Positions 29,804-34,250 of a DNA stretch of 64,000 nucleotides are shown piece after piece. Numbering within the stretch: position 1 is the first letter of the stretch; every line of letters begins with the position of its first letter. The DNA is from Eledone cirrhosa (Eukaryota). Made by a program: the position numbers and the translations under genes. Where the stretch lies: contig OZ024741.1 in NCBI GenBank assembly GCA_964016885.1, forward strand, positions 12,028,001 to 12,092,000, in the 5' to 3' direction. The notes under the pieces are model-generated. The model was not told the origin of the DNA. It searched no databases and saw only the letters and a list, made by a program, of their open reading frames with translations.

Positions 29804-30313
29804 AATATCATCCACTACCTGGAATACCATAACTGGACTTCACCTAAGTGGACTGCATTTAACTATTATTTGTTAATCCGTATATATATATATATATATA
29901 TATATATATATATATATATATATATATATATATATATATATATATATATATAAATAAATAAATTAGAAGAATCAATACTGCGTGGTTGCACGTGGGAAAA
30001 ATAGTCCTTCATCAGTGATTTTCCAACCTTCATTGGTATTTCATCGCTTTAAAAATCATATACCTCCAGTTGGTGCGAGCAATAGCTAAATAAAGCTATT
30101 GGGATAAGTAAATCACGTAAAGCGAGCGAGACAAGTAAACAAACATAGAAGGATATATATATATATATATATTAGAAAGTGAGGGTTTTTTTACAAAATG
30201 AAAAATAACCGAGGTGTCCTACACGAGTGAAAGTATAAAGAAAAAAAGATGAAATCGAAAATGCAACTGGAGTCTTATTTTTTTTTTTTTAAATATATAT
30301 ATTTATTTGGTTC

Positions 30314-30349
30314 CTTTACCGGTTTCGCAGTTCTTCTGCTTTTCAAAAA
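30314..30349 (-). ncRNA. Minimal type I hammerhead motif, family A (core UUGAAAA), truncated upstream by (TA)n
   Basis: UUU-UUGAAAA-GCAG aagaa CUGC-GAAA-CCG-GUA-AAG. Confidence 0.55.
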
Positions 30350-30451
30350 TATATATATAACGAAGGAAGTGTGGTAAGGAACCAGGTGGACCATAACGCA
30401 CCAAAGTACTCAATACTTAGGGTAGTAGAGTGGGTAATAGGAACCAGTAAG

Positions 30452-30545
30452 ACCCCGACGGCTGAGCTCAAGCCGTTTCGACGGCTAATTCTGGACTAAA
30501 TGAAAATTTATCCTGGTATTTAAATAGCCGAGCTTCTCAAGGGGT
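30452..30545 (-). ncRNA. Type I hammerhead motif, family B (core UUGAGAA, U3-A8)
   Basis: ACCCC-UUGAGAA-GcuCGGCUA...UAGCCGuC-GAAA-CGGCU ugagcuc AGCC-GUC-GGGGU; predicted cut between 30457 and 30456. Confidence 0.72.
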
Positions 30546-31061
30546 AATTCCATATATGGTCAAAGTGATTGTCACAAGGATTGGTCACAAGTTAGTAGTA
30601 ATCCTGTGATGGCAAATTAGTGGGGGAAGGGGTAGCTAAACCTGCCAGTAGGAGAAGAAGGGGAGGGGTGGGGTAGACCCATTCATGCGTTGGTAGTGCC
30701 GGCTACAGCTGGGCGTGAGGTCAAAGAAGATACTAGGGAGAGGGAGGGGGAGGAAGTCGAAACGGTAAGTAGAACAATAAAGGGTAAAAACATACTGAGA
30801 GTGAAAAAGCGAATAAATGTAAAGAAAAAAATAAGCAATTTCTACGACCTAAGTCTCTCGCTATTGCTAGGCTAAATAAATAAATAAATAAATAAATAAA
30901 TGAATAAATAAATAAATAAATAAAAATAAAAAATAAAATAATAAATAAATAAACTAGGTGAGACGGAGTAAGAATGGACCCTTTTAAGAGGTATAAGTAC
31001 GTATATCATACGGTGACGGGTCAACAAGGGGGGCAAAAATACTAAAGAAACTAACACGAAA

Positions 31062-32345
31062 TCTATATATATAAAACTGTGGTTGTCTGTCTGTCTATCG
31101 ATTTTTGGCACACATCTCCTCTTAGAATCTCTCACGGAATTGCACCGAAATTGCGAGACTTGTACATTGAGCCCTAGCGAAGACATCGGAAAAAAAATAT
31201 TTCAAATTGACCCGCCCTATCTGACGAAATCGAATATAATGTATCGATTTTTGAGCGTAAGTGATCAGTTATTTCCCTTTGTTCTGTTTACATTGAGCGT
31301 CTGCGTGCAAAAATTAAAAAAATTACGCTGGCTTTCTCAGCGTTTAAAATGACATTAACACAATAATTTTTACTTGAAAACAAGTCTATTTAAAGACTGC
31401 ATAAAACAAGCAAATATTTCGTAAAAAAAAGCAAAAATTATATAAGTTTATTTAAAATATATGTATCTGTAAATTTCGTTAGGCGTGCAGTCAGTTTTAT
31501 ATATATAGATGATAAACAATAATATCCTCTATGAGGTCACTAAACCTGCTAGAAACAGCAGCTAACTCTCCCTCATATCACACCACTCCCTACTGTCTTA
31601 AATTTAGAAAACACATATCCTCTATGAGGTTACTAAACCTGCTAGAAACAGCAGCTAACTCTCCCCCATATCATACCCCTCCCTACTGTCTTAAATTTAG
31701 AAAACACATCTTCTATGAGGTCACTAAACCTGCTAGAAACAGCAGCTAACTCTCCCCCATATCACACCCCTCTCTACTGTCTTAAATTTAGAAAACATAT
31801 CTTCTATGAGGTCACTAAACCTGCTAGAAACAGCAGCTAACTCTCCCTCATATCACACCACTCCCTACTGTCTTAAATTTAGAAAACACATATCCTCTAT
31901 GAGGTCACTAAACCTGCTAGAAACAGCAGCTAACTCTCCCTCATTTCACACCACTCCCTACTGTCTTAAATTTAGAAAACACATATCCTCTATGAGGTCA
32001 CTAAACCTGCTAGAAACAACAGCTAACTCTCCCTCATATCACAACCCTCCCTACTGTCTTAAATTTAGAAAACACACAGACAACCATGCAGAACAACTCC
32101 ATCGCAGCTCTGTTGATCGGCTGGCATCGTCTACTCGCGTGTTGCGCAAGTACTGTGAAACAATAAATTTCAACACTTTTTTGCACAGAGATAATATCCA
32201 TAGGCGAAACTACAATTGTCACTGCTGGCGCAGCTCATGCTTCCAGGTCTGCAATTCATTCACCCAGTGCCTGGCAGACAAAAAAGTGCTGCAACCTAAC
32301 TTTGGTAACTTAATGACCCCGAGCAACGCCGGGCTTTAATGCTAG
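31062..32345 (+). mobile_element. Non-autonomous Helitron of the same family (1284 bp)
   Basis: A|TCTATATATATAAAACTG start; the first ~250 bp are nearly identical to the autonomous 5' end; same hairpin CCCGAGCAACGCCGGG and CTAG|T end. Confidence 0.92.
31526..32075. repeat. 91-93-bp minisatellite, 6 copies, inside the non-autonomous Helitron
   Basis: Units start at ~31526, 31619, 31710, 31801, 31895 and 31988 (CTATGAGGTCACTAAACCTGCTAGAAACAGCAGC...). Confidence 0.95.
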
Positions 32346-32690
32346 TAGTTAATAAAGGTTTCTACCCCAGGCACAAGGCCATCAACCACCCAGTGCAGAA
32401 AAGTAAACTAGTACGAAATAATAATTGAGAGTCACTCTCAGTATGTTTTTACCCTTTATTGTTCTACTTACCGTTTCGACTTCCTCCCCCTCCCCCTCCC
32501 TAGTATCTTCTTTGACCTCACGCCCAGCTGTAGCCGGCACTACCAACGCATGAATGGGTCTACCCCACCCCCTCCCCTTCTTCTCCTACTGGCAGGTTTA
32601 GCTACCCCTTCCCCCACTAATTTGCTATCACAGAATTACTACTAACTTGTGACCAATCCTTGTGCAATCACTTTGACCATATATGAAATT

Positions 32691-32784
32691 ACCCCTTGAG
32701 GAGCTCGGCTATTTAAATACCAGGATAAATTTTCATTTAGTCCAGAATTAGCCGTCGAAACGGCTTGAGCTCAGCCGTCGGGGT
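32691..32784 (+). ncRNA. Type I hammerhead motif, family B, second copy (core UUGAGGA, U3-G8)
   Basis: Inverse copy of 30452-30545 with one core difference; predicted cut after C32779 (GUC). Confidence 0.65.
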
Positions 32785-32796
32785 CTTACTGGTTCC

Positions 32797-33132
32797 TATA
32801 TATATATATATATATATATATATATATATATATATATATATATATATATATATATATATATATATATATATATATATATATATATGTATATATATATATA
32901 TGATGTATGTATATATATATATATATATATATATATATATATATATAATGTATGTATATATATATATATATATATATATATATATAAATATATATATACA
33001 CATATATATATATATATATATATATATATATATATATATATATATATATATATATATACAAATATATATATATATATATATATATATATATATATATATA
33101 TATATATATATATATATATATATATATATATA
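32797..33132. repeat. (TA)n microsatellite
   Basis: Directly visible; other (TA)n tracts at 29881-29952, 33323-33388, 33764-33858 and 34026-34066. Confidence 0.98.
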
Positions 33133-33458
33133 GGAACAAGTATGACCCCGACGGCAGAGCTCAAGCCGTTTCGACGGCTAATTCTGGACAGAATTAGCCG
33201 TCGAAACGGCTTGAGCTCTGCCGTGGGGGTCACACTTGTTCCTATTACCCACTCTACTACTCTAAGTATTGAGTACTTTGGTGCATTATGGTCCATCTGG
33301 TTCCTTACCACATTTCCTTCGTTATATATATATACATATATATATATATATATATATATATATATATATATATATATATATATATATAGAAAAAAAGATG
33401 AAATCAAGAATGCAACTGGAGTCTTATTTTTTTTTTTTAATTTATATTTATTTGGTTC

Positions 33459-33494
33459 CTTTACCGGTTTCGCAGTTCTTCTGCTTTTCAAAAT
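33459..33494 (-). ncRNA. Minimal type I hammerhead motif, family A (inverted arm copy)
   Basis: Reverse complement of 33589-33624 with a weaker stem I. Confidence 0.5.
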
Positions 33495-33588
33495 TAGAGT
33501 TGAGATGGAGGGTCTGTGGTTTTTCTCACATCTGATGTTTTTCTCATCCAGATGTGAGAAAAACCACAGGCCCTCCATCTCAACTCTA

Positions 33589-33624
33589 CTTTTGAAAAGC
33601 AGAAGAACTGCGAAACCGGTAAAG
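33589..33624 (+). ncRNA. Minimal type I hammerhead motif, family A (U3-A8 core, palindromic ACCGGU stem III)
   Basis: CUU-UUGAAAA-GCAG aagaa CUGC-GAAA-CCG-GUA-AAG; predicted cut after A33621. Confidence 0.62.
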
Positions 33625-34250
33625 GAACCAAATAAATATATATATATTTTAAATTAAGACTCCAGTTGCATTTTCGATTTCATCTTTTTATCTTTATACT
33701 TTCACTCGTGTAGGACACCTCGGTTATTTTTCATTTTGTAAAAAAAAACCTCACTTTCTAATAATATATATATATATATATATATATATATATATATATA
33801 TATATATATATATATATATATATATATATATATATATATATATATATATATATATATAATATAAGATCAAAAGATGGTTAAAGGAGTTCCATATATTTTA
33901 TTATGGAACTCCTTTAACCATCTTTTGATCTTATATTATGCATACTCCAGTCCCACAAACTGTAGAGTGCTTCTTATCCGATATCTGCATTGCTTTATTG
34001 TACTACAATAAAACTCACCTCCTACATATATATATATATATATATATATATATATATATATATATATTGAAATAGAGCTTATATAGTATGAATATTGTTT
34101 CCTACACTTAATATGCATGTGTGACCATTGGTTTCAGAGTCCAGTTATGTTCACCACTGTATATTGGAGTAGGCCCAACTGAGCCCTCATGGGCCACTTG
34201 AACATGTGCGAGTGCTCGATGAGGGGGTTAGTTTGGAAGAGCCTACTCCA

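Follow-up and report, generated by a model that had tools for sequence, protein, structure and literature searches.

Predicted U3-A8 hammerhead ribozymes in 5'-truncated insertions of two Penelope-like element families in Eledone cirrhosa

We analyzed a 64,000-nt stretch of DNA from Eledone cirrhosa (hereafter the window; GenBank assembly GCA_964016885.1, contig OZ024741.1, positions 12,028,001 to 12,092,000), which sits in a 3.0-Gb microsatellite-rich eukaryotic assembly and contains a cluster of hammerhead ribozyme motifs at 30171..33762 (window positions). Mapping the window onto intact units resolved this cluster into four insertions from two Penelope-like element (PLE) families, A and B, with TA runs between them; the tandem-repeat list places (TA)n target arrays at 32797..33132, 33323..33388 and 33764..33863. 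The first insertion is a lone A 3' end on the minus strand (30171-30349), 5'-truncated at stem I, with its core at 30346-30317 and 92-95% identity to intact A ends; it terminates into (TA)n at the long site, about +147 (ends are numbered in nucleotides downstream of the predicted cleavage site). The second is a head-to-head B pair (30357-32433 on the minus strand and 32432-32799 on the plus strand), whose left arm is split by a Helitron into a 3' part with a long (+100) end (30357..31061, 84.6% identical to an intact B unit) and a 5' part that was mapped up to the truncation/inversion junction (32346..32433). Its inverted, 5'-truncated right arm has a short (+20) end and differs from the left arm by 5 substitutions over 363 aligned nt. 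The third, a tiny head-to-head B pair at 33130-33333, lacks the 5' half of the core in both arms (minus arm 33130-33189, ending at +20; plus arm 33189-33333, ending at +100) and was overlooked in the original prediction for this locus. The fourth is a head-to-head A pair at 33383-33762, comprising an inverted arm with a short (+79) end (33383..33534, minus strand) and an arm ending at the long site (33545..33762, plus strand). Neither open reading frame (ORF) of the intact units is represented, even in part, within these insertions, so that the modules are indeed non-coding as first described, but only through truncation of coding elements.

The B copy at 30545-30452 (minus strand) has the core UUGAGAA with a U3-A8 pair, stem I ACCCC/GGGGU, a 54-nt helix-II region, GAAA, a 5-bp stem III and a GUC site, with cleavage predicted after C17 (30457). 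The plus-strand B copy at 32691-32784 is otherwise built in the same way, with predicted cleavage after C17 at 32779, but its core UUGAGGA forms a U3·G8 wobble. The A copies at 30349-30314 and 33494-33459 (both minus strand) and at 33589-33624 (plus strand) share UUGAAAA, GCAG/CUGC and GAAACCGGUA, and in the plus-strand copy the predicted cleavage falls directly after A17 (33621). A U3-A8 core, originally ascribed to every copy, is therefore present in four of the five listed copies, the remaining one (32691) being U3·G8. For B, the 5-bp stem I, full stem III and GUC site were described correctly, while the loop put at about 40 nt has 37 nt with a second hairpin predicted inside. Likewise, the 4-bp stem II, ACCGGU palindrome and GUA site of A were borne out, except that the 33459 copy retains the core but has a stem I (AUU/AAG) of only 2 pairs; in the copy at 30314, truncated at stem I, the 3-bp stem I is partly built from the U-run at the junction. 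Helix I of A has 2-3 bp in the window copies and 4 bp in intact elements.

Family A formed helix III only as a 6-bp intermolecular palindrome in cofolding, which fits the dimer-type minimal class to which it had been assigned; dimer action of PLE motifs with a short stem III has been reviewed (PMC6765202). Family B formed all three helices as a monomer, this being the minimum-energy state in some subfamilies only. The minimum-energy fold of the window B copies is not the hammerhead, as a competing hairpin sequesters GAAA; in copies of the same subfamily, the hammerhead fold lies ~2.4 kcal/mol above the minimum, and in the youngest intact subfamily it is the minimum-energy fold.

A hammerhead descriptor scan of the whole window, with any pair permitted at positions 3 and 8, returned four motifs (B at 30540(-) and 32696(+), A at 30346(-) and 33592(+)), all inside 30171-33762, and rejected the A copy at 33459. 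Dinucleotide shuffles of 30171-33762 gave 1 hit in 300, with or without the TA runs, confirming that the motifs at these positions exceed chance. Genome-wide, matches to the minimal U3-A8 pattern numbered 16,332 and those to the B pattern 7,190, as against 0 for the reversed-pattern controls. An Rfam scan returned no hammerhead among 50 matches at E<=10, and the earlier expectation that CUGANGA-only searches would miss such motifs was correct: together with Rfam searches, they miss >20,000 motifs in this genome. The reading of U3-A8 as a compensatory pair in a type I hammerhead was also upheld; this pair has been described as an active natural covariation (PMC3088659). The window motifs are type I hammerhead motifs with a compensated U3-A8 core, and self-cleavage is predicted from their sequence.

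Fragments encoding reverse transcriptase (RT) and GIY-YIG endonuclease were found upstream of A and B copies elsewhere in the genome, and protein searches found many genomic copies with long open frames. Among ten B and ten A loci selected for long frames, a 784-codon frame was present in 9 of the 10 B loci, with the B motif both upstream and downstream and a tandem period of ~3.53 kb, and a 775-codon frame in 9 of the A loci, every one of the ten containing the A motif; in locus L066, the RT ORF is flanked by direct A repeats. The distance from the predicted cleavage site to the next ATG is 193 nt in B and 168 nt in A. The encoded proteins (716 aa for B, 775 aa for A) share 21% identity over 446 columns. 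For the B protein, the structural model (pLDDT 90.3) had telomerase reverse transcriptase (TERT) as its top Foldseek match (E 1.3e-8), and the sequence contains RWR, DKT, a CxCx5C linker, CxxC and CxH near the C-terminus and VIY..YIG, without CCHH or GxKF/Y; RWR stands for RWK, found in 41 of 59 aligned relatives. The B protein had no Pfam hit, with PF01541 occurring on similar Atlas clusters, and the A protein matched RVT_1 narrowly short of the Pfam cut-off (E 1.4e-6), with GIY-YIG above the cut-off on a fragment of family A; PDB sequence searches with both proteins returned nothing. The A protein contains DKG, CX4CxxC and two Cys between GIY and YIG, a linker type also found in Nematis (PMC8557442). 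By these motifs, rather than by a tree with named references, B would be a Hydra-clade PLE and A a Neptune-type PLE.

Both families combine the features of endonuclease-containing (EN+) PLEs, namely a telomerase-like RT followed by GIY-YIG, a hammerhead inside the pseudo-LTR (pLTR), tandem or inverted pLTRs, 5' truncation and a tail at one end, and B additionally shows the (TA)n insertion of the Hydra clade. Linkage to intact RT and GIY-YIG ORFs substantiates the placement of the motifs at PLE termini, and A and B are the pLTR motifs of two separate autonomous PLEs. We conclude that 30171..33762 very probably represents four separate 5'-truncated insertions of two autonomous PLE families nested in (TA)n, whose hammerheads are pLTR ribozymes with predicted cleavage. 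A third young Hydra-like family (loci L186-L190) has 821-codon frames 36% identical to B and, in the descriptor scan, no hammerhead of its own. In another locus (L040, 1-1480), ~27 tandem copies of a 54-bp A piece, the 5' half of the hammerhead, precede one complete copy, an array that looks like the product of repeated template jumping.

Hammerheads with U3-A8 at PLE ends are already in print, as they were reported for the Schistosoma mansoni Cercyon PLEs in 2014 (PMC4209133), so that the novelty originally claimed was overstated (see also PMC3088659) and the finding as posed is an ordinary one: the features are genuine, and they add members to a kind of element that was already known. Cercyon PLEs resemble A and B in having a type I motif with U3-A8 and a short helix I in terminal repeats, as well as thousands of dispersed truncated copies with opposite-strand pairs 100-700 bp apart, and they share a palindromic helix III region with A (PMC4209133). 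However, helix II of A has 4 bp and no extra base after A9, as compared with 7-8 bp and an extra base in Schistosoma, and B differs from the motifs in that paper in its full monomeric helix III and long branched helix II.

The Hydra clade of Craig et al. (2021; PMC8557442) agrees with B in DKT, an RWK-like motif, CxCX5C, the absence of CCHH, CxxC and CxH, as well as in the (TA)n target, a hammerhead near the 3' end and inverted 5'-truncated copies. In contrast, each of the 26 Hydra rows in File S2 of that study lists a CUGANGA core, with loop II measuring 3-10 nt and helix III being short. In B, the core is U3-A8 (or C3·A8), the helix-II region spans 54 nt and helix III comprises 5 bp; the B unit is also ~3.5 kb with an 80-nt tail, compared with mostly <3 kb and a 30-40 bp tail. 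This monomer-type architecture is new relative to the 26 rows of that table, although it is built from known features. Neptune PLEs share with A the motifs DKG and GxKF, the CX4CxxC linker, a Cys pair inside GIY-YIG, microsatellite targeting and an upstream ORF that overlaps the RT frame in another frame, seen for A in one locus (L117) (PMC8557442). The 68-nt tail and U3-A8 minimal core set A apart from the Neptune clade, and the placement of A with Neptune rather than Nematis is a tentative one, made from motifs.

The original prediction had also termed the modules retrozyme-like. Animal non-LTR retrozymes share with A and B a type I hammerhead and a relationship to PLE pLTRs (bioRxiv 10.64898/2026.07.22.740005), but they are head-to-tail tandem non-coding monomers, whereas the window modules are head-to-head truncations of coding elements, the same motifs are borne by intact autonomous partners and the tandem-repeat list of the window contains no retrozyme-type period. 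This label was therefore dropped for the window. True retrozyme-like arrays occur elsewhere in the genome: one with a 316-bp period and 6.5 copies that are 99% identical (L149, 1302-3370; G000:C1 near 6519946), with relatives in L115, has a U3-A8 minimal hammerhead in six listed units and is thus a retrozyme-like array with a variant core, and a 310-bp tandem array (L188, 1-2740) has a canonical C3-G8 hammerhead with a palindromic helix III. More canonical C3-G8 hammerhead families were seen in the same genome (L032, L113, L129, L053, L139 and L158), one with long helices II and III.

Conservation among genomic copies followed the ribozyme. A comparison of 8 subfamily groups of B showed differences in 3 of 46 columns of the core and stems, as against 17 of 60 columns in the loops and adjacent flank (p 0.005, for columns that are not independent), and all four bases occurred at N7. 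In the minimal U3-A8 families, two-sided changes were found at 2 of the 4 pairs of stem II (7 sequences; score reached in 6 of 500 shuffles). Several observations weigh against pLTR ribozymes with predicted cleavage in two assigned clades. Stem covariation, proposed originally as a check alongside core conservation, failed to appear in B, where we found two-sided compensatory changes at 0 of 33 pairs (with the inner hairpin register off) and stems that are invariant rather than covarying. Folding z-scores of -0.3 to -2.1 were weak, and in the predicted fold of A, U3 is able to pair with A17, an analogue of the C3-G17 trap described previously (PMC3884650). The 5' breakpoints fell at +1 of the cleavage site in 0 of 84 B and 0 of 54 A copies, a sample biased to whole-motif copies, and given this lack of a pile-up, a role in 5' trimming is without direct support. 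To these we add the clade labels, with their basis in motifs.

The insertion ends were informative about the template. In B, 3' ends lay at +20 in 53 of 162 copies and at +100 in 79 of 162; in A, they lay at +79 in 22 of 63 and at +147 in 36 of 63. At each of these sites the element sequence reads TAT or TATA, and (TA)n follows. None coincided with the predicted cleavage site (0 of 176 in B, 7 of which were too near the locus edge to classify, and 0 of 63 in A), and every copy examined spans that site. We examined 64 head-to-head pairs, and after 10 were set aside as read-through or unclassified, 48 of the 54 classifiable pairs joined one long and one short end (p 3e-9 against 0.5). Truncated copies in inverted arrangement, targeting of (TA)n and a tail that often lies at one end have been described in words (PMC8557442), and the tail asymmetry hereby acquires a number. 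Given that the ends lie downstream of the predicted cleavage site, with one site per arm, the template RNA for insertion was likely uncut, or re-ligated, at that site.

A comparable route has been described for PAc, a Poseidon element of Anolis carolinensis, in which the tail is defined by two sites of internal initiation that lie downstream of the hammerhead, both strands are cut, ribozyme cleavage is protein-assisted, uncut RNA serves as the template and cleavage is not needed in vitro (Frangieh et al., 2024; PMC11167929). PAc initiates without target homology and has a C3-G8 core, whereas both A and B sites end in TA(T) matching (TA)n. By analogy, we infer that A and B insert as PAc does, with the addition of TA microhomology. 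The element protein likely nicks both strands of (TA)n, and two cDNAs are likely primed through a match of a few TA(T) bases at two internal RNA sites downstream of the hammerhead; the truncated cDNAs would then be joined head to head. The ribozyme, probably unneeded for each single insertion, is likely a slow, conditional cutter, with ACCGGU presumably allowing A to act in dimeric form and B presumably acting as a monomer in competition with the alternative hairpin; transcripts that read through are likely trimmed by it at the upstream repeat. This role is the least certain step of the proposed route.

The main value of this study lies in two side results that touch on whether PLE hammerheads need to cleave, a C3·A8 lineage and the rule of end pairing. 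The 7,190 B motifs comprise 5,350 with U3-A8, 1,781 with C3·A8 (~25%) and 59 with G8, 10 of these being C3-G8; G8 is a sporadic change, and family A has only 41 copies with C3. In B, C3 co-occurs with linked diagnostic changes, and the C3·A8 copies, mostly in amplified subfamilies, keep conserved stems. Both arms have C3 in 8 distinct head-to-head pairs, which places C3 in the template RNA; a single mixed pair (L161) seems to be sporadic. In a motif tree of 111 of 146 B copies, with positions 3, 7 and 8 masked, as well as in an ORF codon tree of 20 copies, the C3·A8 copies branch as a grade, with older U3-A8 subfamilies on one side and younger ones on the other. ORF tip lengths go from ~0.04 through 0.013-0.038 to <=0.004 in 7 of the 8 youngest copies, and outliers of 0.047 and 0.215 look recombinant or mis-assigned. 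The age order of the subfamilies was taken from tip lengths and arm-to-arm distances, with overlapping groups, as a root placed with a distant outgroup fell among young U3-A8 copies on a long branch and was unreliable.

In PAc, single mutants at positions 3 and 8 are inactive while insertion is unaffected (PMC11167929). Because these other single mutants are inactive, we infer that a C·A mismatch at 3/8 also inactivates, and the amplified C3·A8 copies suggest, on this analogy, that cleavage was dispensable for them. The hammerhead fold may then be kept mainly as a structural signal, a platform for protein binding or RT start, with little or no cutting in vivo. Such a role, which we consider a serious possibility though not the better one, would fit the number of C3·A8 motifs relative to sporadic G8 in B and to C3 in A, the presence of C3 in the template, the grade in both trees, the conserved stems and the position of the +20 end near the outer end of a predicted extended helix I, together with the PAc mutants. 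However, U3-A8 was regained, and in the youngest intact subfamily the hammerhead is the minimum-energy fold, two observations suggestive of selection for an active core; the remaining core bases also stayed fixed, and the parts of the literature covered here yielded no test of a C·A pair at 3/8. Family B could even be a natural ribozyme knock-out and rescue, in which U3-A8 gave way to an unpaired C3·A8 master, with ~1,800 copies and three helices kept, before U3-A8 was regained; we offer this tentatively and think it rather unlikely. If true, it would be in vivo evidence that PLE hammerheads persist largely as a platform positioning RT start sites, with cleavage optional, and the long/short end rule would stem from a protein dimer that primes the two target strands from separate sites on the RNA. 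We found no report of amplified C3·A8 PLE subfamilies in our partial coverage of the literature. Family B supplies young intact elements and natural U3-A8, C3·A8 and U3·G8 variants in one background, which makes the cleavage question directly testable.

The C3 variant may instead owe its appearance to a register shift, in which N7 was deleted and G8 restored. G at position 7 in 94 of the first 100 C3 copies would agree with this, but the linkage of G7 with C3 is accounted for by descent of a single lineage.

The original prediction had also suggested that A and B may be one element with two ribozymes, given that B is followed by A on both sides of the window cluster, where the two lie on the same strand. 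Such a composite would be non-autonomous and retrozyme-like, and three A loci outside the window likewise have a whole-motif B upstream on the same strand. We reject this idea, which is now highly improbable. The spacing between B and A varies, being 140 and 842 nt within the window and 197, 891 and 1,245 nt at other loci, with TA runs in between. Most loci of either family lack the other: A was present within ~1.5 kb at 2 of 30 B loci (both of these being the window), at 2 of 27 and at 0 of 24, and among 27 A loci, 5 had B nearby, with unrelated spacings and orientations. Each family also has its own intact ORF unit, with proteins as divergent as described above. Given the lack of fixed linkage elsewhere, the recurring B-then-A order reflects the shared (TA)n target. 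That the motifs are chance or decayed look-alikes without ribozyme ancestry, as the lack of an Rfam match and the weak z-scores might suggest, is scarcely credible in light of the shuffle and reversed-pattern controls, the thousands of genome-wide matches, the location in PLE pLTRs 168-193 nt upstream of an ATG and the selective conservation of core and stems.

The non-autonomous Helitron that interrupts the B left arm (31062..32345, plus strand) was inserted at A|T and has a 5' TC and a 3' hairpin with CTAG; a 93-bp tandem array lies within it. Its boundaries were set from end motifs and from unbroken BLAST continuity in other loci, and the exact empty-site string had 0 hits in other copies. 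Its first 257 nt and last 31 nt are 96% and 97% identical, respectively, to the ends of an apparently autonomous Helitron at ~20289-28296 (minus strand), which has a 1,598-codon frame (22155-26951) with Helitron_like_N and PIF1 domains. Adjacent to the cluster, 29586-29801 (minus strand) encodes a fragment from the C-terminal endonuclease of a different Hydra-like PLE, with 39% identity to the B protein and no adjoining hammerhead in the descriptor scan. A near-perfect inverted repeat of ~84 nt at 33856-33939, right behind the last (TA)n run, is probably a further tiny head-to-head insertion.

Elsewhere in the window, two related broken non-LTR retrotransposon ORFs with AP-endonuclease and RT motifs lie at 6689-8770 and 11251-14493 (minus strand), and a third, RTE-like by its motifs, lies at 18484-20278 (minus strand). 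Satellite arrays occupy 1-6048, 16493-17832, 34446-35176 and 38772-63998, with units of 16 bp (two blocks), 61 bp and 45 bp; the array of 45-bp units spans 25 kb and has an extreme C/A strand skew.

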